A DNA stretch of 57,155 nucleotides from a virus (taxonomy: Duplodnaviria > Caudoviricetes), in the IMG/VR virus record IMGVR_UViG_3300049055_000031, positions 1-57,155 of that record; one strand, 5' to 3'. The position numbers and the translations under genes were made by a program. The first letter of the stretch is position 1; every line of letters starts with the position of its first letter. The notes below the pieces were generated by a model. That model did no database searches and was not told the origin of the DNA. It worked only from the letters and a program-made list of their open reading frames with translations. Of the stretch, positions 17,849 to 57,155 are shown one piece after another.

Positions 17849-19132
17849 TTACGCGTAAGCAGCCGGAGGGTCGTACGTGGCGTCAGCGGTGATTTCCATC
17901 ACCATTCCTGCGCCACGGTGACGCACGCCGGTCCCGAACCCGAAGGCCCAGAACGAGTCAATCAGCGGGTAGTCAGGTTGCTTGCCCTTGACCAGTCGCA
18001 GACCCCGCAGGTTAGTGTTCGCGTGCTCGCGAATGCCAACAGGGTTGCTCAGCGAATCCACACCACCGGTCGTGAAGCCGAAGATGTGCGTCGAAGGCAG
18101 CCAGTCATCCTGCACGATGATCAGCGGACCGTAGTTGCCGATCACCTGCAAGCCGTCGAGCGTTGACGCAACGGGAGCCTGGCCGAGCACCTGAGTGGTC
18201 TGGTTGGTGATCTGGCCGGGCTGGCCCTGGGCGGGGATGAAGTCGTAGAGACCCGTTCCGCCGTTCGCCGTGCTCCGGAAGTTGCGGATGACATTGCCCT
18301 GCGTGGTGTGGACCATCAACACCTGGCGGTAGCCGTTTTCCTGGCTGTATCCGTGCGAGTTGAAGTCAGCGATCATCTCATCGAGATCACCGGCGTTCAA
18401 CGTGCCAGCACCAGTGGTCCGATAGTGCTGGTGAGTGCTCAGGAAAGTGTTGTTCTTGTACGGCGGTGGCACAGTGCCATCGTTGTTGTAGAACTTGAAC
18501 ACCGTATAGGGCTGCTGGTTGATCGACGCGCTGAGGTTGTTCGCGTTGAACACGGTCTTGAAGACCTCGAACAACTGCTTGCGCCAGTAGGCCTCGACAG
18601 CCGCAGTGGCAAGCGAGTTCACCATGGTCTCAGTTGCATCAGCGAGGTACTGCCAGGTGTAACGCCCGGCCAAGTCGTACCACTTGAAGGTGTACGCCAT
18701 GTTGAAGTACGTCGGCGTGACGCGCTGACCGACAGGCTCACCGAATTGCGACGACTCCTCGAAGTCCACCCCAGTACCCTGCTGCGGAACGAGTTCCAGC
18801 GGCGACTGCACCGAGAACGTGAGGAATCGGATGAGGGCCTGACGCTGCGAGTTGACAGCGTTGAGCAGTTGTAGGAAGGAAGTCCAGATCTCATTGAGAT
18901 CCCGACCATCGGCGGTCTGTGTGACGACATCACCTGAGACGTGGAAACCGGAGTTGGTCTCCGGAGCCGCAGCACCAGCGATGCCCATGAGCATACCCAG
19001 CTCACGGATGTTGACACGCTCGAAACCGGCACGCGCAGGACCACCGGCCCAGGCTGGCCAGATGGTGTCATACCCCTTCTCAGGGGTCCAGACCGTTCCG
19101 TGCCCCTTGGGCAGGATGAGACTTGTGTTCAC
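17849..19132 (-). CDS. Major capsid protein
   Basis: ~427 aa after scaffold; strong codon bias; GFGTGVRHRG C-terminus; GTGA overlap. Confidence 0.85.
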   Translation of the reverse strand: MNTSLILPKGHGTVWTPEKGYDTIWPAWAGGPARAGFERVNIRELGMLMGIAGAAAPETNSGFHVSGDVVTQTADGRDLNEIWTSFLQLLNAVNSQRQALIRFLTFSVQSPLELVPQQGTGVDFEESSQFGEPVGQRVTPTYFNMAYTFKWYDLAGRYTWQYLADATETMVNSLATAAVEAYWRKQLFEVFKTVFNANNLSASINQQPYTVFKFYNNDGTVPPPYKNNTFLSTHQHYRTTGAGTLNAGDLDEMIADFNSHGYSQENGYRQVLMVHTTQGNVIRNFRSTANGGTGLYDFIPAQGQPGQITNQTTQVLGQAPVASTLDGLQVIGNYGPLIIVQDDWLPSTHIFGFTTGGVDSLSNPVGIREHANTNLRGLRLVKGKQPDYPLIDSFWAFGFGTGVRHRGAGMVMEITADATYDPPAAYA

Positions 19133-19560
19133 AGTTGCACCGCCTGACAACGAACGACGAGGCGACCAACCTCGACAACTTGACCGACGTAGAAACCGTT
19201 GACACCTGCACCAGGCGCAGTCGAGGTGAGCCGCGATGCCGTGGTGTCCATGTACAACTTCTGACCGGCAGTCGGGGCAACACCACCCTGCATGTCCGCG
19301 CCGGAGATCTCCACCACTTCGCCGTGCGTCATGACGTCGATCACGTCACCGGCTGCAGCAGCCACGGCGTGAACGATCAGGATACCGGAGGCAGCCGCAA
19401 CCGTTGTTGCCTTGATGACCTGACCGGAGGCGTTGAGCGCCACACACATGATGCGATTGAGGTCAGTGACCCCAGCGGGTCCGCTTGTCGCAGTCCACGC
19501 GGCAAAGAGTTTCCCTCGGAAACCGCCCGAGACGGGGTTATACTTGTCATATCGACTCAT
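19129..19560 (-). CDS. Capsid decoration/cement-like protein
   Basis: Between scaffold and capsid; AGDVIDVMTHGEV, AGQKLY motifs. Confidence 0.65.
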   Translation of the reverse strand: MSRYDKYNPVSGGFRGKLFAAWTATSGPAGVTDLNRIMCVALNASGQVIKATTVAAASGILIVHAVAAAAGDVIDVMTHGEVVEISGADMQGGVAPTAGQKLYMDTTASRLTSTAPGAGVNGFYVGQVVEVGRLVVRCQAVQL

Positions 19561-19657: not shown

Positions 19658-20554
19658 TCAATTCAGGCGGTTTACGAGTGCCGGGAACTTTTTGGCCAGT
19701 TGTTCCCGAGTCAGCTCCTTGTCCGACTTCTTCGACCCCTTGCGCTTTCCATTCATTCTCGAAGCCGTGGCCCTCGGGGCATCATCGCCTTCATCGGAAT
19801 CCTTGTCGTCATCCTTCGGCTCAGCCTTCTTGACGAGATGAGGATTCGCCTTTGCAAACCGCTTGAGCTCAGCTCTGAGCGATTTGCGATCCACCTTACC
19901 ATCGTCGTCAAACTCCACCTCGTAGTCATCATCGGCCAACATGAGCGCAAGCGCTTGTTCCGGCTTGATCCACGTAACCTCGTTGACCCGTAGAAAAGCG
20001 TTCTCAACGCGCAGTTTCTGCGCAGCCGCTTCTGCCTCTCTGATCTTGGAATCATCGACGATCACTTTGGGCTTGTCCTTGTTCTTGCCCTTGGTCTTGC
20101 CGTTGTCGTCCTCGTCATCTTCATCTTCGCCGGACTCGTACTTGGCCTTTAGGGCAGCCAACTCGGCTAGAGCGGCATCACGTTCTTTGTTAGCTCGCTT
20201 AGCTTTGCGGAAGTGACGATCCTTCTCCTCCTCGAGAGCCTTTATCTTAGCTTTGGCATTGCCCTTTTTCTTGCCTCTCTTAGAGTCGTCATCATCCGAG
20301 TCATCATCATCATCATCTTCCTCGGAATCTTCGTCTTCCTCGTCGTCTTCCTCGGAGTCATCCTCATCCGAGTTCTTGTCGTCCTTGTCCCCGTCTGAAT
20401 CATCATCCGGTGCTCCACCTATCATCGGCCATATGGGCAAACCACGCTTGGTCCAGCCCATTGGGGTAATTGCCCTCCCGGTCACCGGATCGACCATGAA
20501 CAGCGGCATCTGCGACCCAGCCGCGATACCCGGCTTGACAGACCTCAGGTCCAT
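19658..20554 (-). CDS. Scaffolding protein
   Basis: Acidic tracts, coiled coil, KANPHLVK and KKFPAL C-terminus. Confidence 0.85.
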   Translation of the reverse strand: MDLRSVKPGIAAGSQMPLFMVDPVTGRAITPMGWTKRGLPIWPMIGGAPDDDSDGDKDDKNSDEDDSEEDDEEDEDSEEDDDDDDSDDDDSKRGKKKGNAKAKIKALEEEKDRHFRKAKRANKERDAALAELAALKAKYESGEDEDDEDDNGKTKGKNKDKPKVIVDDSKIREAEAAAQKLRVENAFLRVNEVTWIKPEQALALMLADDDYEVEFDDDGKVDRKSLRAELKRFAKANPHLVKKAEPKDDDKDSDEGDDAPRATASRMNGKRKGSKKSDKELTREQLAKKFPALVNRLN

Positions 20555-20601
20555 CTGTATTCACTCTCCCTCATTCCGGGACCATCCCGGATCATACGAT
20601 C

Positions 20602-21186
20602 TTAAAAGAACGGCAGGAACTCAGCCCCTTTGGCATGTCCGCTAGCTGGACTCACGTCCGTAACCAACTCCACAAAAAAGTTGTATCCATCTCCACCGGG
20701 AAAATTGTTAGCCGCCAAACTATCCATGAATGTCCCGGCACTACCGCCGTTAGTCCACCGGCCATTACCTGATGTGGCCTCATCTAGCGCCGATAGAGTG
20801 CCATTCGTGATCGGCCAGACGTCGGGGGGTGTGTATGTATACCGACTACCCTCAATGGCTACCTGAGCAGCCCTCGGGGTGTTCTGCGGCCATGCCAGCG
20901 GAGCCCCAAGGTTGACTCGGTTCCACACCCCCGCAGTGATGCTTCCGAGGGTCAGTTGCACCAACCGGCTACCGGTCCCCGAAGCGGGGTTGTTCCCGGT
21001 GAGCGACCAGACAGACAACAACACTGCAGTGATACCAGTCAGCGTCTGCGGAGCAAACCATCGGATGCCGACTATGTTGGTATCCACTGTTGACTGCTCG
21101 ATAGTTGCCAGGACTCGTCTTGCCTCTCCGTCAACCGCATCCGGCGTGCTCGGCGTTTGACTAGTGAGGACTGTTAACTCAGGCAT
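20602..21186 (-). CDS. DUF4082-like beta-sandwich structural protein
   Basis: VGIRWF, GVWNRVNLGAPL, NFFVELV motifs. Confidence 0.55.
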   Translation of the reverse strand: MPELTVLTSQTPSTPDAVDGEARRVLATIEQSTVDTNIVGIRWFAPQTLTGITAVLLSVWSLTGNNPASGTGSRLVQLTLGSITAGVWNRVNLGAPLAWPQNTPRAAQVAIEGSRYTYTPPDVWPITNGTLSALDEATSGNGRWTNGGSAGTFMDSLAANNFPGGDGYNFFVELVTDVSPASGHAKGAEFLPFF

Positions 21187-22619
21187 CAGTACCCCTTGGT
21201 GAAAGCAATGACATCCCACTTAGAGTCCGTCGCGTTGTATCGCACGCCCAGGTAATCCGTCTTGTTGGCAGCCGTTGAAAGGACAACCGAAGGAATGTCA
21301 GTTCCCAACCGATAGTCTGAGCCCAAGGTCAACACCCGACTACCAGTGCCGTCCTGACGGATAGCGAATAAGATCTTCTGACCATTGCTTGAGTTGGTTG
21401 GGTTGCCAAGGGTCGCCGGACCGGTCATTGTCAGCGTGAAGTCATTACCCAGCGACGCGTCCACCGCCACCGTTGCTGCAAAGGTCAAAACATCTGGTGT
21501 ACTTAGGTACCGACCGGACTGGGTCAGGTTCACGGCCGTGGCTGTACCGGTCAATGCCGGGTTGGCGAGCGGTGCCAATAGCGCCAGCGCGGCAGTCAAC
21601 CCAGCGACATCGGATTGCGCGATAGCAAGCAACGTCTTCACCTGAGCGGTAGTCAGTGCGATCGGCGCAGCTGCCCCTCCAGTGTTGTTACCCAGGATAG
21701 TCGATGCAGCGATGTTAGCCAGCTTGGCCAAGGTGACATTGCCGTCTACAATCTTGGCCATAGTCACCGTTCCGTCTGTTGGCGTGCGTGTGTCGGTGAA
21801 CCGAGGATCACTGGTCAACGCGAGTAGCGAAGTATCGACAATGCCGTGAATGGCTGTGGTGTCACTCGTATGTGTTGCCAACGCCCCTGCGGCATTGTTG
21901 GCTACTGTCGTATCAGCGGCAGCCTGAGCCGTGCTCACTGGCTTATTGACATCCGAGGTGTTATCCACGTTGCCCAGTCCAACCTGGGCCTTAGTGTAGT
22001 CTCCGGTCTGCGCGACAACATCTCCATCACGCCCAAACACCGACGACACAGCGCCGCCTCCACCACCGGACGACGGGTAGGTCTTCCACACCGCCGCATT
22101 GGTCCCCGGGGTCACCCCGGAAGAGGCCTTGAGAGCTCCGTAGACCGACGAACCGTGTTGAACCGTATCACCGGTAAGGTACAACGACGTGACGAGCCAC
22201 GTACCCCTGTAGCCGCCATCAGCGACGGGCAAACCGGTGCCCTGCCGAATGGTGAGCGACGGTGTACCTACGTTGGGCTCTCCCACGTCTGCCAGATCCA
22301 GCGCCGCCCCGGGGGTATCCCATGGCAACGGGAACGCCCACCACAGTTTTCTGTAGTCATCACTAAACGTTGCTTGAACAACGTACTCTGCCGTGTTCGG
22401 CAGCCAATCAGCGTCAGTGGTCGCCGGTATCTCAACGGAGAACACCCCAGCCACCAGGGGAACCTCCAAGTCGAAGGGAGGAATGATGATGTTGTCTCCC
22501 TCCGACCGTATCGGTGTAGGAAGAGTGATCGTGACCACACCTTCTCGGGGTTCGCCGCTGTCCCCGTGCAAGAACTCACCCGAAAGTGTTATCAGGGTCA
22601 AAGAGACGGGAAAAGGCAT
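21186..22619 (-). CDS. Fibre protein with CBM5/12-like module
   Basis: YRGTW...YLTGDTVQHGSSVY...PG....W; VSSVFGRDGDV, VGLGNVDNTSD fibre motifs. Confidence 0.7.
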   Translation of the reverse strand: MPFPVSLTLITLSGEFLHGDSGEPREGVVTITLPTPIRSEGDNIIIPPFDLEVPLVAGVFSVEIPATTDADWLPNTAEYVVQATFSDDYRKLWWAFPLPWDTPGAALDLADVGEPNVGTPSLTIRQGTGLPVADGGYRGTWLVTSLYLTGDTVQHGSSVYGALKASSGVTPGTNAAVWKTYPSSGGGGGAVSSVFGRDGDVVAQTGDYTKAQVGLGNVDNTSDVNKPVSTAQAAADTTVANNAAGALATHTSDTTAIHGIVDTSLLALTSDPRFTDTRTPTDGTVTMAKIVDGNVTLAKLANIAASTILGNNTGGAAAPIALTTAQVKTLLAIAQSDVAGLTAALALLAPLANPALTGTATAVNLTQSGRYLSTPDVLTFAATVAVDASLGNDFTLTMTGPATLGNPTNSSNGQKILFAIRQDGTGSRVLTLGSDYRLGTDIPSVVLSTAANKTDYLGVRYNATDSKWDVIAFTKGY

Positions 22620-22624
22620 CAGCC

Positions 22625-22849
22625 CTATCCTTTCAGATCGATCATGAGATAGGCGTTTGACCAGCCGGTCTTCATGAGGTTGCGAAACGCCGCGTGTCGG
22701 TCTTTCTTGCCTTTAAGCGCTTCTTGAACAACCGACTTGATAACTCCCTCATCAACGCCGGTGTACACGACCTTGCCCGATGGCGTCATGGTAGCTCTTG
22801 CCACCTCAAGAGACGGATCGGTTACTACCACTATTCTTATCTGATCCAT
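22625..22849 (-). CDS. 74-aa protein; candidate immunity partner of the MuF kinase
   Basis: Starts 3 nt after the MuF stop; GWSNAY C-terminal motif. Confidence 0.6.
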   Translation of the reverse strand: MDQIRIVVVTDPSLEVARATMTPSGKVVYTGVDEGVIKSVVQEALKGKKDRHAAFRNLMKTGWSNAYLMIDLKG

Positions 22850-22852
22850 GAC

Positions 22853-24607
22853 CTATCCCGCCAGGATGTTTCGCGTTCCCTTAGAGAAGGGACGCAACTT
22901 GTCAAGAACGGCTAATGCGTAATCCAAAAAATTCCTTTGGCCCATATGGATTAAACCAGGCCCCACTGCCTCAATCCGGCTTCGAGCCCAGTCGATATCC
23001 GCCGTGGTGAACTTGTGGTTCTTGCTTATGCCGATGAAGATCTGTTCTGCAAACGGACCACTGGCGCTCAACTGCGGCATAGCCCGGCCACCAATGATGA
23101 CCGGTTGTGCGTGACCGTGGTCGATCGGGACAATCCGGCCTGCGTTACTGACCATCCAGTTACCCGTGTTGCGGTCTCCGTTTCGGATCAACAGATCAAA
23201 CAACCCGACTCGAAGCCCTTCATCCGATTCGGCAAGAGCAAAATGCTCTTTTCTCAATTCTGCCAGGTTTCCGGCCTTATTAGCCCTCACCTGAAGTTCA
23301 ACAGCCGTCTTCGCATCTCCAACGTAGTCCATCCAGACTTCTCCGGGATGGTTCCGATACACGCGCGGTGCTTTGGTCCCCAGTGCACCACCGATTACAG
23401 ACGAGGCCTGTTCGGCACCAGGGTTGCCAGCCGACTTGCGGACAAGCTTGGTACCATTAGCGAACGTCACCAGTTCAGTATCGGCAGACACACCGCCTGT
23501 CAGTTTTTGGACAGACTTAATAGCAGACTTCTCCACCGTATTGGCCAGGTCTTCAATACCCTTGATGCTGGTGTGATACGGCTGGGCGTTCTTCGGAACC
23601 GGTATCTCTTTCGGTGCCGGAGGAGGTGCGGTTTTCTTCGGTGCCGTTGTAGTCTTTTTGGGTGTCGGTGCTGTTTTCTTTGCTGTCGTCTTTTTGACAG
23701 GCTCCGGTTGACCCTTCAACCTCGCCAGGTTGGCGTCAAAGCGTCGGCGTAGTTCGTCATCGTACTTGCCGGATCGCACATCATCGGCGAATTTCCGGGG
23801 AGACACAGAGGTAGCAGTCAGGAAGCACAAACACTGCGGGTGTGGTTTACCTGGCACCTTCCCTCGTGGAAACTGTCCTGGTCCCAGGTTGTACTGATCC
23901 GACTCGGCCAGAGTGTTGCATTCGTCCTTGCGCGGGTGTGACCCAGACAGATTCCACTTCACTGACTCTACCCAGGGGAACTGAAACCCCTTGATCTGCT
24001 GGTTGTGAAAGGCGTTGTTTATCTCAGTGCGTGCCAACCGCATAGCGACGTACGACGCTCCACCCGGTGCCGTTGGCGATACAAACCGATAGACGTCTTT
24101 AGCCAACTCTCTTGCCGAGGCATTCCGCAGAATCCCGTTCCGAATCAACGTCTCGATATGATCGGTAGACCATTGGCCATTCTTGTACAGCCGAGTGGAC
24201 AATTCACGCTTGACCCGAGAGTAGAACGTATTGATCCCAGCCTGGGCAGAAGCCATCAGCGAGTCAACGAACTCGGTAGCCGCTGCCCGAGGCAACGACG
24301 ACAACCCGATACGTGCCAACTTCTCGAGGTCATCGGTGGCGAAGATGGCCGCTGCCAACTGACCTGCACGAATCTCGTCACCAATCGACAAGAACATATC
24401 AAGTTGAGTGCGTCGGATCTGCGACAGTACCAATCTCAACTGCGACGCTCGAATCGAGTCAGAAAACCGAGTCGAGACCTTGAGCTTTTCAACCCGTCGC
24501 TGAATGTCGAGTGCTGCCTCCTCGAGGATCTTCATGATCCGTTCATCGTACTGACGCTGCAAGCGCAAGTATCGCCTAAGCGGCTCCGGAAGCGCCATCG
24601 TCGCCAC
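22853..24607 (-). CDS. MuF-like minor head protein fused to a PI3/4K/HipA-like kinase domain
   Basis: RLARTEINNA...HPQCLC MuF motif; K/T/P linker; FDLLIRNGDRNTGN...IDHG kinase motifs. Confidence 0.85.
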   Translation of the reverse strand: MATMALPEPLRRYLRLQRQYDERIMKILEEAALDIQRRVEKLKVSTRFSDSIRASQLRLVLSQIRRTQLDMFLSIGDEIRAGQLAAAIFATDDLEKLARIGLSSLPRAAATEFVDSLMASAQAGINTFYSRVKRELSTRLYKNGQWSTDHIETLIRNGILRNASARELAKDVYRFVSPTAPGGASYVAMRLARTEINNAFHNQQIKGFQFPWVESVKWNLSGSHPRKDECNTLAESDQYNLGPGQFPRGKVPGKPHPQCLCFLTATSVSPRKFADDVRSGKYDDELRRRFDANLARLKGQPEPVKKTTAKKTAPTPKKTTTAPKKTAPPPAPKEIPVPKNAQPYHTSIKGIEDLANTVEKSAIKSVQKLTGGVSADTELVTFANGTKLVRKSAGNPGAEQASSVIGGALGTKAPRVYRNHPGEVWMDYVGDAKTAVELQVRANKAGNLAELRKEHFALAESDEGLRVGLFDLLIRNGDRNTGNWMVSNAGRIVPIDHGHAQPVIIGGRAMPQLSASGPFAEQIFIGISKNHKFTTADIDWARSRIEAVGPGLIHMGQRNFLDYALAVLDKLRPFSKGTRNILAG

Positions 24608-26075
24608 CCTCTAGCTCATCGTCAACCCGCGTACCGAAGGTGTCGGCCTTCTGGTCATCACGCCATGCCTTTGAACGTGCAGCCATATCCTGAGGGAACA
24701 CGTATCCAAGCTTAGATGCCTCTTGACGGTAGTACTCGTCATCAATCACACCACCGGCCAGCATGTCGTTGAGTTCTCTGAATCGGGTCTCTCGATCCAC
24801 CGGAACGGCATCTCCGAATACTGACTTGGCTGACACTTCAGCAAACGTAGTGTCCTCGTACGTCGGATACCACATGTTGACTAAGTCAAACCACATCTGG
24901 TCATGCTTCTCGGCGATCAGATCATTCTTCTCGGCCGATTTCTCCATGATGGGTAGCAGTTGTAGTGATAGAGCAATACCCGATTGAGCAATCTGCACGT
25001 CAACCGTCCCCACAGCAACGTCAGGTGACGCTGTGGCCTGCTTCATGGACTCCCAGAGCCGGTTGTAGTGATCACCGAACGGCGCCACGGTTCCCACCCC
25101 AGCGATGCGTTCCCACTCCGTACCCTCAGGCCGGTGGATGACCACTCCCGGACCGATCCTCCACGGAACCGGTTTCTTGGTGTCGGGGTCAATCGGCCTC
25201 GGCGCAGTGGTGCTGTACATCCCGAGACCTTGCATGGCGAGCGTCAGGTCTTCATCACTCATTGTTTGGTGTAAACCAGCGATGATGCGCTCCATACCGC
25301 GCAGTTCTGACGACCCGAACACATTACCGGGCTCCTCAAAGTTCTTGATGTGGTAGACCGGTATCGAGGTGATCCCGACAAGAACACTCTGGGGACTGAT
25401 AACCTGAACTGGCTGTGCCTCGAGATCCTGCCAGTCATCAGTCGCGAAATACCCTTCCTCAACCGTCACCACTGCATCACTCGTTGCCGTAGCTGCCGTC
25501 TTCCGATAGCACACTCGCCGGACCACTGGGTCGTCATTCAGAGTCGTCGGTTCGGCGAGGAACACGGCAATGATGCGATCCACTGAGTCTGGATCGGGAA
25601 CAGGAAAGTAGAACCCGGGGTCAATAGTGTTCAGCGACACTCGAGATCCCAACGGCTTGTCAGGATTGGCGGTGACGTGCCACACCCAATCACCTTGAAT
25701 CTGGCAATACCGCTTGGCACCTCGGAACTTGGACTTGAATCTCTCCCGGGTCATCAGGTCTGACAGCGCCATTCGAGCAGCCAGCACATCCGGCGTGTCT
25801 TTACCTGTCAGGCGATTGGTCACCGCGATCGAGTACCCCGCTCCGGTGTACCGGTTGGAGGTATCTACGATGGTCCGCCCAGCCGGAACGTAGATAGGCT
25901 TGTCGTCAGTCCCGCGTTGACTCAATTTGAACACATCAGGAACGTTCCAGTAGATCTGCTCGTACAACGTGTACGACTGGAGACGCTCGATATCCAGGGG
26001 GTCGGCAACCCAGGCAGGCTTCGGGCCGAACAGCTTGGCTCCCGTGGTATACGGGGTGAAGACCGGTGTGGTCAT
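24576..26075 (-). CDS. Portal protein
   Basis: 499 aa after terminase; VYHIKN..FGSSEL, SGIAL motifs. Confidence 0.88.
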   Translation of the reverse strand: MTTPVFTPYTTGAKLFGPKPAWVADPLDIERLQSYTLYEQIYWNVPDVFKLSQRGTDDKPIYVPAGRTIVDTSNRYTGAGYSIAVTNRLTGKDTPDVLAARMALSDLMTRERFKSKFRGAKRYCQIQGDWVWHVTANPDKPLGSRVSLNTIDPGFYFPVPDPDSVDRIIAVFLAEPTTLNDDPVVRRVCYRKTAATATSDAVVTVEEGYFATDDWQDLEAQPVQVISPQSVLVGITSIPVYHIKNFEEPGNVFGSSELRGMERIIAGLHQTMSDEDLTLAMQGLGMYSTTAPRPIDPDTKKPVPWRIGPGVVIHRPEGTEWERIAGVGTVAPFGDHYNRLWESMKQATASPDVAVGTVDVQIAQSGIALSLQLLPIMEKSAEKNDLIAEKHDQMWFDLVNMWYPTYEDTTFAEVSAKSVFGDAVPVDRETRFRELNDMLAGGVIDDEYYRQEASKLGYVFPQDMAARSKAWRDDQKADTFGTRVDDELEGGDDGASGAA

Positions 26076-27454
26076 CCATTCACCTCTGAATTGACTTGGA
26101 ACGATCCGCCCTCAACAGACGGCGCTCCGTAGTGGCCACGGAAGAAACGGCCGAGAGCCTCTACTCCGTGATTGTCTTTGTCCATCGGGTTCTCACTATC
26201 TGACTTGACCTTCGGCTTGATATCCGACTTACGCTCCGGCCACTTGTACCCCTCACGCATCTCCCAGGCGAGACCAGTACATGACCGGTCAACCATCAGC
26301 GTCGGTATGCGGTCAGGGTGTCCCTCGGGTAGGTATGAGTTGCGGCACTTCAGCGACCGGCGAATCATGCTCAGTCGCGTCTTGAGTGGTCCCCCGGTGT
26401 TGCTTCGAGCGGCGATTCGGAGCTTCCTCTCCAGGGTCCGCGTGTCGTCAGGCTCCGCAGGATCCGGATACAAAGTCTCACACACTCGGACTAAACCGGG
26501 TATCTCATTCAAGACATCGATCGCTACCTCTTCAGTATCCAGGTGGTAATATCGCTTCTCCCAAATCACCCGGATCTCACCAAACGGTCCCTCTTGGATG
26601 ATTAGAACCACGAACGGGTTAGTAAAGCCGTAGTCCACCGCCATGAACGTGCGCCACGATGGCTCAAATGAGAAATCACCAAGGTGTGTGTCATCATCCC
26701 ATTCCTTCATGACCACACCGGTCTTTTCCGAGAATTCGGCTCCATATTGGCGAGCGAACTCGTCAGTCGTCAGGTCGTCTTCAGCATCCAGGATTTCTGG
26801 ATCAGCCCTACCACCCGGAAAGACAATAGTGTTCGTCCAACTGGGCATTTTCCAGGATCGCCAGCCGCGTAACTGCGCCGATGGGGTCAATCCCCGTTGG
26901 TAAAGCGAATAGAGAAGTGAATGCTCAGACTTACCCTCGGGAACGCCGGTGAACACCGCCCACCCCCGCTTGTCTGACAGCGTTGGACGGATGAATTCAC
27001 CCCACGTCCGGCGACGATGACGACCGGCCTCTACCATCAGCACAAAATCCAGGCCTTCACCGACCAATGACTCCGGTTTGGCTGCCGACTTACCAATAAG
27101 CTCAAAACCCCAGTTGGTCAAGATATGCAGGTTACCTGATTCGACGTTGTGCAGAAACTTGACAGAGTCTCTATCCACACCTAACTTACGCAGTGAATCG
27201 TACACTATCTTGAACTCTTTGTCAGTGTCGCTGTACTGGGGACCAACGATCCAGCCGGTCTGGGGTTCTCCCGTGATTCGAGACGTCACGAAGCAATTCG
27301 GTTCTGCTTCACGTGCACCGAAGATGGTCTTACCCCAGCGCCTGCCGTTCGAGATGACCTTAAACCGCGCTGGGGTATAGTGGATCTGCTGCTGACCGGG
27401 ATGAGGACGATATCCGACTGTCTCGTAGTACCCGGATTTGCTAAGAGAAGGCAT
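26072..27454 (-). CDS. terL: Terminase large subunit
   Basis: GRRWGKT Walker A; AVDYGFTNP nuclease; DKDNHGVEAL. Confidence 0.93.
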   Translation of the reverse strand: MPSLSKSGYYETVGYRPHPGQQQIHYTPARFKVISNGRRWGKTIFGAREAEPNCFVTSRITGEPQTGWIVGPQYSDTDKEFKIVYDSLRKLGVDRDSVKFLHNVESGNLHILTNWGFELIGKSAAKPESLVGEGLDFVLMVEAGRHRRRTWGEFIRPTLSDKRGWAVFTGVPEGKSEHSLLYSLYQRGLTPSAQLRGWRSWKMPSWTNTIVFPGGRADPEILDAEDDLTTDEFARQYGAEFSEKTGVVMKEWDDDTHLGDFSFEPSWRTFMAVDYGFTNPFVVLIIQEGPFGEIRVIWEKRYYHLDTEEVAIDVLNEIPGLVRVCETLYPDPAEPDDTRTLERKLRIAARSNTGGPLKTRLSMIRRSLKCRNSYLPEGHPDRIPTLMVDRSCTGLAWEMREGYKWPERKSDIKPKVKSDSENPMDKDNHGVEALGRFFRGHYGAPSVEGGSFQVNSEVNG

Positions 27455-27693
27455 CACCGGTATCCACGGGACGAGAAATCTCCTTCGAGTTCCGGGGGAA
27501 GCACCGAGTCAGGCCGCGTCCCGTCGTCCATCGGGTCAATGGCGTAGACCATGGACAGCCGCTCACTCGCCGTGGGATTGTGCGGAGGTGGCTGGACTAC
27601 TCCCCCGACACCCCCGAACTCCGATCCAATGTCTGGGTCTTCCGTCGAGATCAGACTCTTGCTGTGAATCTCCAGCGGAAACGGCTGTGTCAT
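27454..27693 (-). CDS. Hypothetical protein
   Basis: ATGA-type coupling on both sides. Confidence 0.55.
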   Translation of the reverse strand: MTQPFPLEIHSKSLISTEDPDIGSEFGGVGGVVQPPPHNPTASERLSMVYAIDPMDDGTRPDSVLPPELEGDFSSRGYR

Positions 27694-28043
27694 GACGGTA
27701 CTCCTCCCGATGCCGCAAACTGGTTAGTGACCGCGCGTATCTTGTTCTCAGCTGCAGTCAGGTCCTCAGGTGTGATCACACCTTTGTCGATCAATGCTTG
27801 ACGAAGCACCGGATCGAATGGCCACGGGGCAACCTCACGCACCGCCCCAGTTTCGCTGCTGGCGGGTTTTCCCGGCTTGGTACGAGTACCGTCCGGCAAC
27901 CTGGTCCCAAACGTCTGAGACGTCGGTATGGACCCGTCGTTGAATTGATGCCTAGTCTCGTTGTTCATGTGCCATGCCCAGGTATTGTCGCAAGTCTGAC
28001 AGACCTCACCCGGTGCGCGCTCCACGTCAATCCTCGTCCCCAT
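27690..28043 (-). CDS. Hypothetical protein with CxxC..H
   Basis: SD GGAGGGAG; LRQALIDKGVITPEDL motif. Confidence 0.65.
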   Translation of the reverse strand: MGTRIDVERAPGEVCQTCDNTWAWHMNNETRHQFNDGSIPTSQTFGTRLPDGTRTKPGKPASSETGAVREVAPWPFDPVLRQALIDKGVITPEDLTAAENKIRAVTNQFAASGGVPS

Positions 28044-29507: not shown

Positions 29508-29797
29508 TGCCCTGACTCCTCGTCCTCATCGTCGTCAGCCCACCGGCCAACACCCCGGATGACATCTTTACCAATCTGCAGCAATCCCAGGGCCACATGA
29601 TCCGGCGTCGATCCACCCATGTACACAATCGGGTGTGCCGAGTCTTTGACCTCGCCGGTTTGCTCGTTCACCCTATGCTGATGGGCAATTAGAATCCAAC
29701 CGCTCAGAAAGCCATCCCATCCCAGAGCCTTGAAGTACTTCTCAACAGCCGCATCGAGCTCAGCTTGAGCGGCGATCTGTTCCGGAGTGTCGATCAC
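29504..29797 (-). CDS. Hypothetical protein
   Basis: Coupled overlaps; HVALGLL motif. Confidence 0.65.
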   Translation of the reverse strand: MIDTPEQIAAQAELDAAVEKYFKALGWDGFLSGWILIAHQHRVNEQTGEVKDSAHPIVYMGGSTPDHVALGLLQIGKDVIRGVGRWADDDEDEESGQ

Positions 29798-30579
29798 AGT
29801 CCATCCAACCGATGAGTGAGGTACTGGCGCCCACGAGCGTCAACCTCGACCACAAAGTCCTGGTACAGCGCAGGCTCCACCTGGTGAGCCCACTCGTAGA
29901 TCTCGCATGCCAGTTGACGGATCTCAGCATCGGCATGCAGCGACCCCCGTAGTTTCAGAAAGTGCCGCCATGCCCGGTGATTGCCGGTCATCACAATGCG
30001 CGTAGGCGTCATGTTGGGCAGCACACACCGAGCGGCCTCCCGAGACTCCTTCTTGAGCGCGGTCCCGGTCACACCTTCCCGGTACAACCGTGCCTCGGCG
30101 ATCTCAACCAACTCATCATACGCGCGCAGCGCCTCGTTCCATGCCCTCTCGAGGATTCCCTGAACCTCGGATGCTTCTGGATCACTGTCATCTGTGACCC
30201 ACCCCAACGAGTAGTACAATGGCGGGATGATGGGCTTCACCGATGCTGCCAGCTTCACAAACCGCTGAGACTCCTGCGAGGGAGACAGGTGTCGATGCCG
30301 GATCAACTCATGCGTGAGCGACCGCGACACGCCCTCGATGTAGAACGTGAACGTCCCATGCTCGAACGTGGAGGTGTGGTCCAACTCGAGAATGTGCGCC
30401 AGATACGCAGGATTAGCGGAGGTCTGAAGATTTGGTTTCTTCCACGACTGATAACACGCTCGACCGGCAAACTCCGCCAGCAGTGAACCATCGGGGTCTT
30501 TAGCCGTTCCCTCCCATCCGGTCAGATCGTGAGCAACCTCAGAGTTGAACGCAGTGCGACCTATCAGTGTGACTTTCAC
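29794..30579 (-). CDS. thyX: Flavin-dependent thymidylate synthase
   Basis: AGRACYQS, HTSTFEH, ELIRHRHLSPSQESQRFV, AR..LP, EIR motifs. Confidence 0.96.
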   Translation of the reverse strand: MKVTLIGRTAFNSEVAHDLTGWEGTAKDPDGSLLAEFAGRACYQSWKKPNLQTSANPAYLAHILELDHTSTFEHGTFTFYIEGVSRSLTHELIRHRHLSPSQESQRFVKLAASVKPIIPPLYYSLGWVTDDSDPEASEVQGILERAWNEALRAYDELVEIAEARLYREGVTGTALKKESREAARCVLPNMTPTRIVMTGNHRAWRHFLKLRGSLHADAEIRQLACEIYEWAHQVEPALYQDFVVEVDARGRQYLTHRLDGL

Positions 30580-42122: not shown

Positions 42123-43657
42123 TGTTAAAATATAGATTCAAGACTAAGCCGTATCAACACCAGGTGAAAGGGATCAAATTCGTCTTCCGACAATGGAGTA
42201 ATGGTTTAGGCGCCGCATTGCTCTTCGATCCGCGTACGGGCAAGACCAAGACCAGTATCGACGCGGTAAGCATTCTGCACCTCAAGCATAACGTGAAGCG
42301 AATCCTGGTCATATGCCCTAACCGGGTGATGGGTACCTGGGTCCGTGAGTTCCACAACCACTGCCCGCTGCATGCCGATGTGATCCTGTGGGATGCGAAG
42401 GGACGCCGGAGAGCACTACCGCGCAACATCTCGCCGTATGACATCCAGGTAGTAGTGGTCAACTTCGACGCGTTCTCAACTCCCGGAAAGCGCTTACCCA
42501 GTGGACGACGATCGCGCAAGACCGGACGCTTCGCAGTGAGGAAAAAGATCAGGGAATGGATTGGAGATCAGCCTGCCGCTGCTATTGTGGACGAAGGACA
42601 TAAGATCAAGTCTCCATCAGGCAAAGCGTCAATGGCCATCGTGTCTATGCGTGACGACTTCGAGTACCGGTTGCTGCTGACCGGCACGCCGACTACCAAA
42701 GCACACCGCCTCCATGACGTATACATGCAGTGGCAGTGGGTCAACCCGCGTCGGTTCGCTAGGTGGGGTCCAGACGCTACAACGTTCCGCAACCATGTCG
42801 GGGTGTGGACCGAACGGAACGGTTTTCCGCAGTTCTTGCGTGCCAAGCCGAAAGGGGTTGAAGATGTGCGTCACGGAATGCACAAGGACGGGATGGTGGT
42901 CCGTCGTGAGGAGTGTTTCGACCTGCCTAAGAAAATGCCTGATCAGATAATCCCCGTCACCCTTTCGGCCAAATCTCGCAAGGTATACAACGACATGGCC
43001 GAGACCATGATTGCCGAGATCGAAGAAGGTGTGATTGCTGAGGCTGCCATCCCAGTTGTGGTGTTTCTCCGGCTTCAGCAGATCACAGGGGGATTCATCG
43101 GAATCACACCGCAGGACACCGACAACGCCAGCACGGGCAATCGCCGGTTGATGTCTCGTACCCACCGGTTCGGCTCGGAGAAACTCAAGGCTCTCGAGGA
43201 GATACTGGTCGATGAGTACCTTGAGACAGACAGTGATGAGAAAGTAGTTGTGGCTGCCAAGTACGTACGCGACCTTGACGACATCACCAAACTGTGCTTC
43301 AAGCTTGAGATTCCAATGTACAGCATACGCGGGGGGTTGACTCGAGCGCATACCGACGAACAGGTGATCAAGTTCCGCAAGCATAAGGGCATGGGGTTGA
43401 TGCTCGTACAACCCGACGCGGCGTCTCTTGGTATTGACCTATCGTCGGCTCCCCGAATGATCTGGTACTCACTGACCAACTCCTGGGTTAATTGGACACA
43501 GTGCTCAGACCGTATCGCGCTGTCACCCGTGCCGACGACATGCACCTATCTACAGGTGCCTGGCAGCGTGGATCAGTTGATGTATGAGGGATTGCTCAAT
43601 GATACAAACGTAGCCAAGTACATCATGAAACGACCGAAGAAACTGAGGCTGAAGTGA
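42122..43657 (+). CDS. SNF2-family helicase/translocase
   Basis: PYQHQ, DPRTGKT, DEGH, LLTGTP, SLGIDL. Confidence 0.9.
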   Translation: MLKYRFKTKPYQHQVKGIKFVFRQWSNGLGAALLFDPRTGKTKTSIDAVSILHLKHNVKRILVICPNRVMGTWVREFHNHCPLHADVILWDAKGRRRALPRNISPYDIQVVVVNFDAFSTPGKRLPSGRRSRKTGRFAVRKKIREWIGDQPAAAIVDEGHKIKSPSGKASMAIVSMRDDFEYRLLLTGTPTTKAHRLHDVYMQWQWVNPRRFARWGPDATTFRNHVGVWTERNGFPQFLRAKPKGVEDVRHGMHKDGMVVRREECFDLPKKMPDQIIPVTLSAKSRKVYNDMAETMIAEIEEGVIAEAAIPVVVFLRLQQITGGFIGITPQDTDNASTGNRRLMSRTHRFGSEKLKALEEILVDEYLETDSDEKVVVAAKYVRDLDDITKLCFKLEIPMYSIRGGLTRAHTDEQVIKFRKHKGMGLMLVQPDAASLGIDLSSAPRMIWYSLTNSWVNWTQCSDRIALSPVPTTCTYLQVPGSVDQLMYEGLLNDTNVAKYIMKRPKKLRLK

Positions 43658-44187
43658 AGCACATCATTGTCGAAGGCCCTGATGGCTCGGGCAAAACAAC
43701 TCTCGTCGCGCACCTTGCTCACACCTTGGGTATTCCGGTGCACGAGCGTGCGTCATCGTCGAAAGGTGGTCCTCGTCCAGATCTGTATGAATGGGTGATC
43801 TGGGACGCCAAGAAGAACCACCCTCGTACGGAGGACTCATGGATCTATGATCGGTACCCGGTGATCAGCGAGCCGATATACGGCCATCACGTCCGGCATG
43901 AAATCATGGTGCCCTTTGACCAAGAACCGTTTCTCACCGAGATCAAAGACGTTCTTTACACGTCATCCGTGGTGGTGTGGTGTCTGCCCAACTTGGACAC
44001 AGTATGCCGGAACGTATACGCCAATCCCCATGACCAGATGCCCGGGGTGGTGCTGAACATAGGTAAGGTGCATCAGGCGTACATGACCGCGTATTTTCGT
44101 TGGCGTGGTCCGAAGCGCCAGTACGACTACACGCGCCATGACCTAGTCTGGTTCACCGACGAGTTGAAAAGGATGATAATTGAATGA
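43654..44187 (+). CDS. dNMP (thymidylate-type) kinase
   Basis: IIVEGPDGSGKTT P-loop; IYDRY..SE.IYG. Confidence 0.88.
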   Translation: MKHIIVEGPDGSGKTTLVAHLAHTLGIPVHERASSSKGGPRPDLYEWVIWDAKKNHPRTEDSWIYDRYPVISEPIYGHHVRHEIMVPFDQEPFLTEIKDVLYTSSVVVWCLPNLDTVCRNVYANPHDQMPGVVLNIGKVHQAYMTAYFRWRGPKRQYDYTRHDLVWFTDELKRMIIE

Positions 44188-45764: not shown

Positions 45765-46004
45765 ATGCCGACACCACCCCATGACCTCGATGAGAAACGA
45801 GCGGACTTGATCCGCCAGTTCAAAGAATATCAACTGCAGGTATCAGAGGCCTTCGATGGGGTCCTGTCGGCATTGAACGATGGTCGCTTTGCTGAAGCCT
45901 GTAGCATCATGCTTACTATCAGTCGACACCAAGGACAAGCATCAGTCGGCATGCGAACGGTTCTTGTCAAGAACGGGTTTCTGGTCAGGGAGAAAACAGA
46001 ATGA
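45765..46004 (+). CDS. 79-aa helical protein between the TS paralogues
   Basis: SD AGGGAG; ATGA overlap with next gene. Confidence 0.65.
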   Translation: MPTPPHDLDEKRADLIRQFKEYQLQVSEAFDGVLSALNDGRFAEACSIMLTISRHQGQASVGMRTVLVKNGFLVREKTE

Positions 46005-46900
46005 TTCAGTCAGGGCAAGATGAGGTCGTCAACTTCCACAGTGGGGTAATGCCGTATCTTGCAGCAACGTTGCTGGATACCGACCCTGTACACATTGGAG
46101 AGTGGCAGTCAAAGGACACATCGGCAGTCCCTCACATGGCCACTTACGAGGTCATGGATATGCAGATCCGGATTGACGTCCCGAGAACCGACGTTGATCT
46201 AGCCCTGATGCTGGGCGAAGATCTAAACCTACCGTGGGCGGAGGAACACTTCGCTGAGAGAGTCAGCGGTAGGCCGTTCAATCCCCCGCCCTCGCACAAG
46301 GACTGGCCATGGGCTAAGTACAACGGTAACCACCAGACCGGCGATGAACAACAGTTCAGCCACACCTACCCTGAGCGCATGTGGCCGAAGCATGCTGGGT
46401 TGGGCAATGCTCCGGTTCCACCTGTGTTTGATGGCAACCACCATCGCGGTATCCGGTTCGACTACGGAGACCTGGATGATGTCGTAGACCTGCTGGTTCG
46501 GTCACCGTTGACACGTCAGGCGTATCTGCCCATCTGGTTCCCCGAGGACACTGGAGCACACCACCGGCAACGGGTACCGTGCACCCTCGGATACCACTTC
46601 ATGATCCGTGAATCTCAACTGTCGTGCCGGTACTATATGAGATCATGTGACCTCATCCGGCATTTCACCGATGATCTCTACATGGCTGCTCGTCTGATGC
46701 AGTGGATAACCGATCAACTGAACATGTGCCCAAACCCATGGCATGACTCAGCTCCTGCTCGAAAAGTCCTTGTCTGTCCGGAGTGCAAGTCGTCCGTCAA
46801 GACAGGTCGCTTGATCATGTACATCTCGAGCCTTCACGCATTCACCGGCGATGCGTACAAACTCAAGCAGATCAAGGACAGAGCTAATGTCGATCGGTGA
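46001..46900 (+). CDS. ThyA/dCMP-hydroxymethylase-family enzyme
   Basis: TRQA, VPCTLGYHFMIR, MRSCDLIRHFTDD, SLH. Confidence 0.9.
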   Translation: MIQSGQDEVVNFHSGVMPYLAATLLDTDPVHIGEWQSKDTSAVPHMATYEVMDMQIRIDVPRTDVDLALMLGEDLNLPWAEEHFAERVSGRPFNPPPSHKDWPWAKYNGNHQTGDEQQFSHTYPERMWPKHAGLGNAPVPPVFDGNHHRGIRFDYGDLDDVVDLLVRSPLTRQAYLPIWFPEDTGAHHRQRVPCTLGYHFMIRESQLSCRYYMRSCDLIRHFTDDLYMAARLMQWITDQLNMCPNPWHDSAPARKVLVCPECKSSVKTGRLIMYISSLHAFTGDAYKLKQIKDRANVDR

Positions 46901-47384
46901 AGCAACCCGACCAACGCGCGAAGAGACCCTCATGAGGCAGGCTGAGATCGTCGCAGAGCGCTCGACATGCTCCCGCGCACATGTGGGTGTGGTCATCGCC
47001 CATGAGGGCCGTATCGTGTCCCAGGGGTACAACGGTGCGCCTGCCGGGATGGACCACTGTAGTCACGATTGCTCGTGCGGCCTGGACTATGATCCCACCG
47101 ACGTTGAGGATGAGCACTTGACATCATGTCCGGTCGGTGCTTCGACTCGTACCGGATGCAAGGTATCTGTTCATGCCGAGGCCAACGCCATAGCATTCGC
47201 GGCCAAGCATGGTGTTGCCACCGGTGGCGCGGTGCTGTTCACCACGATGGCTCCGTGCCTGGCCTGTGCCCAACTCATCATCAACGCGGGTATCATGCGG
47301 GTGGTGTACGCTCGACCGTATCGGTTCGATGAAGGCCTTCAACTCTTGATTGAGGCCGGTGTAATGGTGGAGTTCGGAGGATGA
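46887..47384 (+). CDS. dCMP deaminase
   Basis: RSTC, GYNG, HAEANAI, PCLAC. Confidence 0.93.
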   Translation: MSIGEATRPTREETLMRQAEIVAERSTCSRAHVGVVIAHEGRIVSQGYNGAPAGMDHCSHDCSCGLDYDPTDVEDEHLTSCPVGASTRTGCKVSVHAEANAIAFAAKHGVATGGAVLFTTMAPCLACAQLIINAGIMRVVYARPYRFDEGLQLLIEAGVMVEFGG

Positions 47385-56020: not shown

Positions 56021-57031
56021 TTACAGCTCGATCGCGCGTTGTGGAGCGGGGTTAACCCGATGAGCGGGGATGTGGGTACGGTCGATCTCGACCTTCGCAG
56101 CGGCCGCGCCACCGGCCGAACGGCCAGCACGGGCAGAATCGTTGTTACGGCGTTGGTACGCGCGCTCATCAGCCTGGGTCCATGGCTTGCGCCGACCGTC
56201 CACCTTCGGAGCGGAGAGATTGGCACGATCCTCCTGGAGTTTCGCGATCTCCGAAGCAGGCATCGGGCGAAGACGCGGGTAAGCCTGGTACTTGGCCTCC
56301 TTGACCCGCTCAGCCCGACCGTGCAACACTAATGCCCCGCCGACCGAATCCGTAGCATCGCGAGAGGCCCTCAGACGGTCCGAGAGGCGCGAAACGAACC
56401 CCTGCGCGTATGACTGCCGGTACATGTCCGCATCGGTTCCCAGGCCGCTCACAAGCGGTCGTTCACCACGAGCCGCGCACTCGGCCAAGTACAACCTTTG
56501 TGCCTTCGACCGAAGCGCGGGGGTGTTCTCCTCCCACAGTTTCCGCGCGATGTCCTTCCGCAGCACACCAGCCTGGCGCAGGTTGTACGCGTTAACCTGG
56601 TCCGACAGTCTGGGGTCAACCTGTGGCTCAAGGTGTGACCCGAAGACCAAACGTGCCGAAGACCACAACCACTCGGCCATACGAAGATCACCCTCGTAGC
56701 CAAATAGGTCAAACCAGAATCCGTGTTGCTCACCCTCCCGGTTGTACCGGATGACGTACTCAACTCCGCAATGGTCGGCAATCCAGTACATCGTCATCCG
56801 GTACTCGTTGTAAAAGTCCGAGTTCGTGTCGTACCCGAGCATGGAGTGCATCACCGGCACCGCCGCGAACTGATCCTCGGCGATCAATTGCTCTTCGGTA
56901 ATCCGGTACTTCCGCATGAGTTCCTCGGCCTTCGCATACAGCGCAGCGGCCTCATCCGGGAATTCGGTACTGTCGGCCTTGGCCAGCAATGCCTGGATCT
57001 TCGACATCATCGACGCCAGTTTTTCGTTCAT
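56021..57031 (-). CDS. DUF2786-domain protein
   Basis: KIQALLAKADSTEFPDEAAALYAKAEELMRKYRI; start coupled to the 45-aa ORF across the circular junction. Confidence 0.8.
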   Translation of the reverse strand: MNEKLASMMSKIQALLAKADSTEFPDEAAALYAKAEELMRKYRITEEQLIAEDQFAAVPVMHSMLGYDTNSDFYNEYRMTMYWIADHCGVEYVIRYNREGEQHGFWFDLFGYEGDLRMAEWLWSSARLVFGSHLEPQVDPRLSDQVNAYNLRQAGVLRKDIARKLWEENTPALRSKAQRLYLAECAARGERPLVSGLGTDADMYRQSYAQGFVSRLSDRLRASRDATDSVGGALVLHGRAERVKEAKYQAYPRLRPMPASEIAKLQEDRANLSAPKVDGRRKPWTQADERAYQRRNNDSARAGRSAGGAAAAKVEIDRTHIPAHRVNPAPQRAIEL

Positions 57032-57155
57032 CGCGCGTTCCTCGTTCCCAGCTGAGCGATCATGGCATCGTATTCCCGTTGCTGCTTGGCGCATGCATCA
57101 CGTGTTGCCTTGTCGTGTGGGTGGTAACACCGGTCATGCCGGATTCGCTTTGGCT
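57006..57155. repeat. Terminal direct repeat, copy 2
   Basis: Matches 1-150 with 1 mismatch. Confidence 0.97.

Follow-up and report, generated by a model that had tools for sequence, protein, structure and literature searches.

A PI3/PI4-kinase-like domain fused to a MuF-like phage head protein and genetically linked to a small protein of a new family

Introduction

Enzymes that are carried within phage heads and injected into host cells are a predicted, barely tested layer of phage-host conflict. Here we describe a candidate for such an enzyme from the virus record IMGVR_UViG_3300049055_000031 (Caudoviricetes). The window analyzed comprises this whole record of 57,155 nt. The locus in question is located on the minus strand and consists of a gene for a MuF-like head protein that carries an atypical PI3/PI4-kinase-like domain at its C-terminal end, directly followed by a small gene for a protein of 74 residues.

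The closest described systems are MuF-fused toxins and polyvalent proteins of phages. In the account of Jamet et al. (2017; PMC5576092) a MuF-type N-terminus is combined with a variable C-terminal enzyme and a small downstream open reading frame (ORF). The window shows the same arrangement, and relatives of its MuF domain also carry other toxin-type domains. Both hallmarks of the Jamet-type systems, interchangeable C-termini and a linked downstream ORF of less than 150 residues, are present here. The MuF toxins of that account, however, belong to temperate phages, whereas the phage of the window shows no sign of lysogeny in the ORFs scanned. In addition, its MuF domain is of a divergent actinophage type below the Pfam threshold, unlike those systems. 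The word "kinase" is absent from the main text of Jamet et al., the supplementary tables being outside that check.

Iyer, Burroughs, Anand, de Souza and Aravind (2017; PMC5512222) described enzymes fused to MuF or portal proteins that are predicted to be packed into the head and injected, and in the relevant sections proposed the MuF-fused enzymes as injected effectors. The protein of the window is similar in this respect, and larger relatives of its kinase domain sit in multi-enzyme proteins together with ADP-ribosyltransferases, as in the polyvalent proteins. The kinase clade described in those sections, however, is devoid of a C-terminal lobe and stems from elements of Verrucomicrobia, Chlamydia and Bacteroidetes; the other kinase is a P-loop kinase of the zeta-toxin type. 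The protein of the window, in contrast, carries a single effector domain whose helical C-lobe is complete, and it comes with a small partner of its own.

With respect to the kinase itself, type II phosphatidylinositol 4-kinases (PI4KII-alpha, PDB entries 4pla and 4hnd; PI4K2B, 9hhm) rank first in both the structural and the profile comparison. The domain of the window shares 17% identity with them, but is much smaller and has none of the eukaryotic insertions. HipA (5k98) and HipT (7ab3) belong to the same branch of atypical kinases. HipT offers a further parallel: as presented by Baerentsen et al. (2023; PMC10627512), it is neutralized by a small separate protein, HipS, which inserts a conserved tryptophan into the active site. 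In the window, however, the partner is encoded downstream and not upstream of the kinase, and it has no detectable similarity to HipS or HipB. Moreover, there is no DNA-binding antitoxin, and the kinase is part of a phage head gene instead of a chromosomal toxin-antitoxin module. An atypical kinase in the head module of tailed phages was also described by Benler et al. (2021; PMC8008677) for the 'Gratiaviridae'. According to the passages on these HipA-family kinases, they are stand-alone proteins of Bacteroidetes gut phages; their role was taken to be superinfection exclusion, and there is no report in these passages of a partner or of a fusion to a head protein. Gp0.7 of phage T7, a kinase cited in PMC5512222 and PMC8008677, resembles the kinase proposed here in acting on host proteins early in infection, but it is the product of an early gene that is made after entry, comes from another kinase family and is no virion protein.

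The strategy of MuF-fused or polyvalent injected effectors is hence already known. A compact PI4KII/HipA-like kinase as the cargo of an actinophage MuF protein, together with a dedicated partner family with the motif GWSNGY, appears to be new. We found no paper on a PI3/PI4K-like kinase fused to MuF or on the partner; the supplementary tables of Jamet et al. and Iyer et al. might list the domain. Our favored explanation is that the kinase is an effector carried in the capsid and injected, and that the small protein is its cognate inhibitor; we assign this a probability of roughly 0.55. The analysis defines a compact module of two genes, an atypical kinase of 240 residues and a partner of about 70 residues from a new family, which moves among four types of head or portal anchors and whose small size permits direct tests. 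The partner could represent a new natural kinase inhibitor.

Architecture of the fusion protein

The fusion gene sits between the portal gene and the gene for the 74-residue protein in a tightly packed minus-strand operon. Its ORF of 584 residues starts with GTG; an ATG is located three codons further in, and the database call for this protein comprises 571 residues. An initial annotation, made from the nucleotide sequence, had described a MuF head protein that is joined by a linker to a kinase and followed by a candidate immunity gene. The two ORFs, the linker and all motifs quoted in that annotation were found in place when the coordinates were checked. The fusion gene comprises the following features:

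22853-24607, minus strand: MuF-like head protein fused to a kinase, 584 residues, including the TAG stop codon at 22853-22855 (ORF and translation)
23687-24580, minus strand: MuF-like minor head (head morphogenesis) domain, residues ~10-307 (PHROG families, annotated relatives)
24023-24040, minus strand: RLARTE, residues 190-195, inside the MuF-like domain
23825-23842, minus strand: HPQCLC, residues 256-261, inside the MuF-like domain
23588-23701, minus strand: low-complexity Pro/Lys/Thr/Ala linker PVKKTTAKKTAPTPKKTTTAPKKTAPPPAPKEIPVPKN, residues 303-340 (composition)
22856-23575, minus strand: atypical PI3/PI4-kinase-like domain, residues 345-584, 240 residues (PF00454, AlphaFold2 model, structural comparison)
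23483-23503, minus strand: Gly-rich loop LTGGVSA, residues 369-375, conserved in relatives
23435-23437, minus strand: predicted ATP-binding Lys391 of LVRK (residues 388-391), invariant in relatives
23411-23413, minus strand: Glu399 of AEQ (residues 398-400), predicted helix-C Glu, invariant in relatives
23159-23176, minus strand: catalytic loop DRNTGN, residues 478-483, with invariant residues; aligns with PI4K2B
23114-23125, minus strand: metal-binding IDHG, residues 495-498, equivalent to DFG, conserved in relatives

For residues 10-307 the matches in PHROG are families of minor head and head morphogenesis proteins, with E-values from 1e-40 to 2e-19 (phrog_1657, 2e-35; phrog_115, 1.8e-19). 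This part of the protein is 34-40% identical to proteins of Mycobacterium, Gordonia and Arthrobacter phages that are annotated as "MuF-like minor capsid protein". These matches and the position right after the portal gene agree with the initial assignment as a MuF head protein, whereas the Pfam family for MuF (PF04233) stays below its threshold. We call the N-terminal part MuF-like, as a divergent actinophage branch and not a proven Pfam member, because the curated MuF models are not reached. A single-sequence search of the PDB with the whole protein of 584 residues gave no match.

The linker region (residues 297-345) is composed mainly of proline (12), lysine (11), threonine (8) and alanine (6). 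A linker rich in P, A, K and T precedes the kinase domain in eight of the ten relatives displayed, with a more mixed stretch in the other two (P0017 and P0033).

Fold and catalytic residues of the kinase domain

The Pfam family PF00454 (PI3_PI4_kinase) matches the whole protein with 28.9 bits and the kinase domain alone with 30.4 bits, compared to a gathering cut-off of 27.1. The match spans only the segment from the catalytic loop to the DFG equivalent; it is also found in 25 of 27 relatives. For an analysis of conservation we used two alignments of relatives with 31 and 27 sequences, which are otherwise 25-46% identical. Gly372, Lys391, Glu399, Asp478, Asn483 and Asp496 are invariant in both (31/31 and 27/27), and Gly371 is invariant in the larger and at least 90% conserved in the smaller one. 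In domain numbering, in which Lys391 is K57 and Glu399 is E65, the catalytic loop residues D144, R145, N146, G148, N149 and W150 are the same in all 27 sequences. The same holds for D162 of the IDHG motif, its neighbors I161, H163 and G164 being conserved in at least 90% of them. An invariant catalytic set in sequences that diverge to this extent speaks for an active enzyme.

The AlphaFold2 model of the kinase domain (pLDDT 91.4, pTM 0.89) has a two-lobed kinase fold with a full helical C-lobe. Its least confident part is the loop after IDHG, which varies in length and sequence among the relatives. An exhaustive structural comparison of the model resulted in the highest Z-scores for PI4KII-alpha (13.4, with an rmsd of 4.5 over 218 residues, and 13.2; 218-223 residues aligned), followed by CtkA from H. 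pylori (13.0), Fam20C (12.7), actin-fragmin kinase (12.3) and CotH (11.1). PI3K-alpha (10.4), HipA (10.4), HipT (9.9) and APH(3') (8.2) came further down. The best solved folds (Z-scores from 13.4 to 10.4) align over 203-223 residues and are all kinases; 63 chains have a Z-score of at least 8, and those listed are kinases as well. A Foldseek search with the model gave at least 500 matches at E-values of up to 1e-3 and agrees with a kinase fold.

A profile built from the 27 relatives found PI4K2B as its best match in the PDB (E-value 1.2e-4), aligned across the catalytic loop. In this alignment the PI4K2B loop IIRNTDRGNDNW is matched with LIRNGDRNTGNW of the kinase domain. The same profile also finds the N-lobe of a Ser/Thr kinase, a mycobacterial ABC1-like kinase, actin-fragmin kinase and PI4KII-alpha. 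The Pfam models for HipA did not match the protein of the window, and HipA_2 matched three of the 27 relatives (best E-value 9e-5). NCBIfam gave weak matches only (SCO1664 family, E-value 0.0033). PADLOC had no match for the kinase, the partner or the next two genes. The match to PF00454 above threshold, the confident fold and the complete catalytic set bear out the assignment of the domain to the PI3/4K-HipA-like kinases in the initial annotation.

The partner gene and its linkage to the kinase

The gene downstream of the fusion gene encodes the candidate inhibitor or immunity protein:

22625-22849, minus strand: partner gene, 74 residues, candidate inhibitor/immunity protein (ORF; new family)
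22649-22666, minus strand: GWSNAY of the partner, its C-terminal hallmark motif

As described initially, this gene starts 3 nt after the stop codon of the fusion gene. Its ATG (22847-22849) has a purine-rich GGCGGGA just upstream, and the following gene begins 5 nt beyond the partner's own stop codon.

We scanned the six reading frames of 61 kinase loci with a profile that was built stepwise from the 74-residue protein. A homologue of the partner was found in 47 of these loci, in 43 of them directly downstream of the kinase on the same strand, with a start between -48 and +110 nt from the stop codon of the kinase gene. The 14 loci with no partner match comprise five that end too early, four with only a loop match of 32-39 residues and five real kinase-like matches. 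In a control with loci of the MuF domain, the partner was present in all five loci with the kinase and in none of the 75 loci without it (four of the 75 are cut short). The partner family hence tracks the kinase domain and not the MuF domain. The reverse test, with a single partner sequence as the query, yielded 12 loci, and in 11 of them, one being cut by the end of its contig, the kinase is located directly upstream.

The partner family comprises 129 clusters of 60-93 residues in a database of 5.8 billion clusters; the only organism names among them are Streptosporangium, Nonomuraea and Microtetraspora. A GWSNGY motif at the C-terminal end characterizes the family; N65 and Y67 are invariant in it, and W63, S64 and G66 are conserved in at least 90% of the sequences. 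The protein has no match in Pfam, PHROG, NCBIfam, PADLOC or the PDB, and profile searches reached best E-values of 0.28 (PDB) and 0.041 (Pfam). A word-based search with the 74-residue protein alone retrieves only itself, and its homologues had to be found by profile search. The atlas model of the protein is poor (pLDDT 0.60), and its structural look-alikes are uninformative.

The mean distance between sequences is 0.71 for the partner and 0.64 for the kinase. The two sets of distances correlate with r = 0.83 in a mirror-tree comparison, a value reached in none of 2000 permutations. We set this correlation aside as evidence for binding, because neighboring genes have a common history.

One of the loci that end too early was extended, on a contig of Micromonospora sp. 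(L143, 5484-13701). Here a reading frame of 2461 residues with three kinase domains in tandem is followed by two partner paralogues in tandem, one with GWSNGY and one with GWTDGR.

Distribution of the kinase and exchange of the C-terminal domain

The kinase family is represented by 725 clusters at an E-value of up to 1e-3, by 308 at 1e-10 and by 41 at 1e-30 among 1.84 billion proteins, with protein lengths from 161 to 5452 residues. The same kinase domain is fused to four kinds of head or portal protein. A fusion to Phage_min_cap2 (SPP1 gp7-like) is present in 4 of 31 close relatives and 6 of 45 representatives, and one to VG15 in 8 of the 31 and 5 of the 45. Among the 45 representatives there are also one fusion to Phage_Mu_F and three to portal proteins. 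ADP-ribosyltransferase domains share the protein with the kinase domain in four of the 45. Linkers rich in P, A and K, or Rho_N or SAP linkers, often precede the kinase domain in relatives.

For the reverse view we inspected viral loci in which the MuF domain of the window has a homologue (80 loci, 35-64% identity). Five of them carry the kinase and 25 another C-terminal extension of at least 140 residues; the remaining loci have at most 67 residues beyond the MuF match or are cut by the end of the locus. Sixteen of the 25 other extensions were sampled. Six contain ADPrib_exo_Tox, one ART-PolyVal and two Gln_amidase (a papain-fold glutamine deamidase), and seven have no Pfam match. The closest relative of the MuF domain (64% identity) has no C-terminal extension. 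The initial annotation had suggested a check on whether relatives swap their C-terminal domain, and this is indeed observed, the kinase being replaced by ADP-ribosyltransferases or a glutamine deamidase. This exchange of cargo places the gene of the window among the MuF-fused effectors of Jamet et al. and Iyer et al.

The full kinase domain is present in one of 50,697 phage records, that of the unannotated Micromonospora phage pMLP1, in which the same module sits on a gp7-like anchor. The domain also matches a PHROG family of unknown function (phrog_3162), and automatic names in UniProt already mark some phage relatives as PI3K/PI4K catalytic domain proteins. The named hosts of the kinase loci are all Actinomycetota, and these loci have a median G+C content of 68%. 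Relatives of the fold occur in haloarchaeal and gut phages as well, and some kinase relatives are located in bacterial genomes. Matches with E-values of up to 1e-10 were found in 6 of 401 sampled genomes from the phylum of one host genome, a figure that says little about the host range.

In a contig of a Microtetraspora metagenome-assembled genome (L005, 2513-3750) a stand-alone kinase of 337 residues and its partner form a cassette close to genes for a glycosyltransferase, an HNH endonuclease and a terminase. The module hence also exists in an unfused form.

In four relatives (P0043, P0048, P0080 and P0064) the gp7-like or portal part is interrupted by matches to the Pfam family Intein_splicing with 27-39 bits. 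The cut-off of 35.8 bits is exceeded only in P0048; P0064 also has a match to LAGLIDADG_3 above threshold.

Proposed function and alternative explanations

We propose the following course of events for the injected effector. The MuF-like part would take the fusion protein into the procapsid beside the portal, and in the next infection the protein would exit the capsid together with the DNA. The kinase, a member of the branch that comprises PI4K-II, actin-fragmin kinase, CtkA and HipA, would then phosphorylate a host component early, before phage genes are expressed. Its action would favor the phage, either in the take-over of the cell or as a counter-defence. The 74-residue partner would be co-transcribed with the kinase gene on the late message and translationally coupled to it. 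Most likely, it would bind and silence the kinase in the producing cell until the latter is packed. The partner would stay behind, and the packaged kinase would be free to act. By analogy to HipS, the Trp and Tyr of GWSNGY, near-invariant and invariant, respectively, could plausibly serve as a plug or pseudosubstrate.

Several points weigh against this explanation. Packaging and ejection of the kinase are predicted, and no prohead protease that could free the kinase domain was recognized in the ORFs scanned. The MuF assignment rests on PHROGs and annotated relatives. Both curated models stay below threshold: PF04233 has no match in the protein of the window at E-values of up to 1, and TIGR01641 of NCBIfam reaches an E-value of 0.092 and 13 bits (cut-off 39.65). 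PF04233 does match in 9 of 18 relatives, but below threshold (15-19 bits compared to 29.6) and in all cases in the second half of the domain, starting from residues 140-160. The substrate class is not readable from the fold, because a lipid kinase (PI4KII) and protein kinases (CtkA, Fam20C, actin-fragmin kinase) lie within one Z unit of each other. Regarding the partner, there are exceptions to its usual position. In three near-identical loci (L047-L049) a stand-alone kinase is found with the partner 2-3 kb upstream of it, and L055 has a convergent partner. No partner is visible in the available DNA of five other loci, whose kinase-like matches are real (L050, L051, L053, L056 and L057). An orphan partner lies beside a scaffold-like gene near the end of its contig (L147, 1343-1591); no kinase was found in the 1.3 kb upstream on this contig, where a gene for 193 residues is located on the opposite strand instead. 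The kinase loci are also partly redundant: several pairs share a contig or come from near-identical ones, and the model comprises 40 distinct partner sequences. The number of independent loci is smaller than the counts given above, because many loci are duplicates or near-duplicates. Finally, why a cell close to lysis should need an inhibitor is a matter of argument. A role in protecting lysogens is unlikely here, because no integrase or repressor was recognized among the scanned ORFs. Of the toxin and immunity pair proposed in the initial annotation, the specific link between the small gene and the kinase stands, whereas the logic of lysogen immunity is not directly transferable to a phage that looks lytic.

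It is possible, although we consider it doubtful, that the partner does not inhibit the kinase and instead serves it as a chaperone, packaging adaptor, activator or physiological substrate or pseudosubstrate. Linkage alone gives no sign of the kind of interaction, the Ser and the invariant Tyr of GWSNGY are potential phospho-acceptors, and a phage that seems lytic has no obvious need for host protection. Six of 40 aligned partners, however, have Asn or Ala in place of the Ser, an orphan copy exists (L147), and the small size, the downstream position and the fast divergence fit the immunity genes of polymorphic toxins as Jamet et al. (PMC5576092) present them. Less probable is a kinase that is not cargo at all and acts late in the producing cell, by superinfection exclusion or by modifying phage or host proteins. 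The MuF fusion would then be a mere expression context and the partner a regulator or substrate. This is how Benler et al. (PMC8008677), in the passages mentioned above, interpreted the gene for a HipA-family kinase that five 'Gratiaviridae' phages have between their portal and capsid genes, and unfused cassettes of kinase and partner do exist (L005, L037, L044 and L052). Against this, the kinase is repeatedly joined to portal-side proteins of the capsid interior (MuF, gp7-like, VG15 and the portal itself), and it shares this position with ADP-ribosyltransferases, as would be expected of ejected effectors. A dead pseudokinase, kept in the head for structural or binding purposes, is the least credible of the alternatives: nothing specific speaks for it, and the complete set of phosphotransfer residues is unchanged in sequences of 25-46% identity.

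Host defence or translation proteins, the targets suggested in the initial annotation, are one possibility for the injected kinase; a lipid or another substrate is just as possible. A small-molecule phosphotransferase with an antibiotic, a cell-wall precursor or a signalling nucleotide as its substrate is very unlikely. Corramycin phosphotransferase (E-value 0.051), LicA choline kinase and APH(3') (Z-score 8.2) are among the weaker matches, and MuF-fused zeta-toxin kinases have been proposed to act on cell-wall precursors (PMC5512222, in its section on these kinases); these matches, however, rank well below the group of PI4KII, CtkA, Fam20 and actin-fragmin kinase. The specific case of a lipid kinase that is delivered at the membrane, phosphorylates phosphatidylinositol and thereby alters the envelope for genome entry or blocks superinfection is rather improbable in our view. 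Type II PI 4-kinases are the top match both in structure (Z-scores of 13.4 and 13.2) and in the PDB profile search (PI4K2B, 1.2e-4). Actinomycetota possess phosphatidylinositol; the named hosts are all from this phylum, the median G+C content of the loci is 68%, and the capsid relatives are actinobacteriophages. On the other hand, the protein kinases CtkA, Fam20C and actin-fragmin kinase follow within one Z unit, the loop after IDHG, with which lipid kinases read the head group, is variable and the least confident part of the model, and relatives of the fold also occur in haloarchaeal and gut phages. If such a miniature enzyme of the type II PI4K kind were injected, which we likewise regard as improbable, it would act on host phosphatidylinositol at the entry site, and the GWSNGY protein would be a dedicated plug that protects the producer's own membrane. 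Such an action on host phosphatidylinositol would be a new mechanism and, if true, the first use of a reaction of the phosphoinositide signalling type by a bacterial virus, with the membrane being remodelled for genome entry or competing phages being locked out.

Genome context

The uncultured phage genome reads as actinobacterial. The CheckV estimate of completeness for the window is 100%. A direct repeat of 150 nt (99% identical) is present at both ends (1-150 and 57006-57155); the record is classed as linear, and the repeat could be a genuine terminal one or result from the assembly of a complete genome with overlapping ends. The closest cultured relatives of the major capsid protein are all actinobacteriophages, the best being Microbacterium phages of ~56 kb (47% identity). 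A megablast search with positions 20000-28000 of the window against phages gave no match. No integrase or repressor was recognized in a scan of 39 ORFs with PHROGs and 24 with Pfam, some small ORFs being outside the scan; from its gene content the phage looks lytic.

Scans with PHROGs and Pfam show a late operon of the siphovirus type on the minus strand, with the gene order large terminase (TerL), portal, MuF-kinase, small gene, tail-type genes, scaffold, cement-like protein and major capsid protein; the tape measure follows further on. Promoter-like or terminator-like sites were not found on the minus strand between 20630 and 27196. Apart from the kinase and its partner, the operon includes:

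26072-27457, minus strand: large terminase (TerL), late operon
24576-26075, minus strand: portal gene, overlapping the start of the MuF-kinase gene
20602-22619, minus strand: tail-fibre-like gene (477 residues; PHROG tail fibre and minor tail families) and DUF4082-like gene (205 residues)
19658-20554, minus strand: scaffold gene, after the kinase-partner pair and the tail-type genes
17849-19150, minus strand: major capsid protein, preceded by a cement-like protein

The two tail-type genes (20602-22619) are oddly placed: they separate the scaffold gene from the kinase-partner pair, within the head module. The scaffold protein (19658-20554) contains a run of ~45 residues that consists nearly completely of Asp, Glu and Ser.

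Outside the late operon, two different thymidylate-synthase-like genes, a dCMP deaminase gene and a thymidylate-kinase-like gene are located at 29794-30579, 43654-44187 and 46001-47384. This set of pyrimidine enzymes in a phage of 57 kb may point to a modified pyrimidine in the phage DNA.

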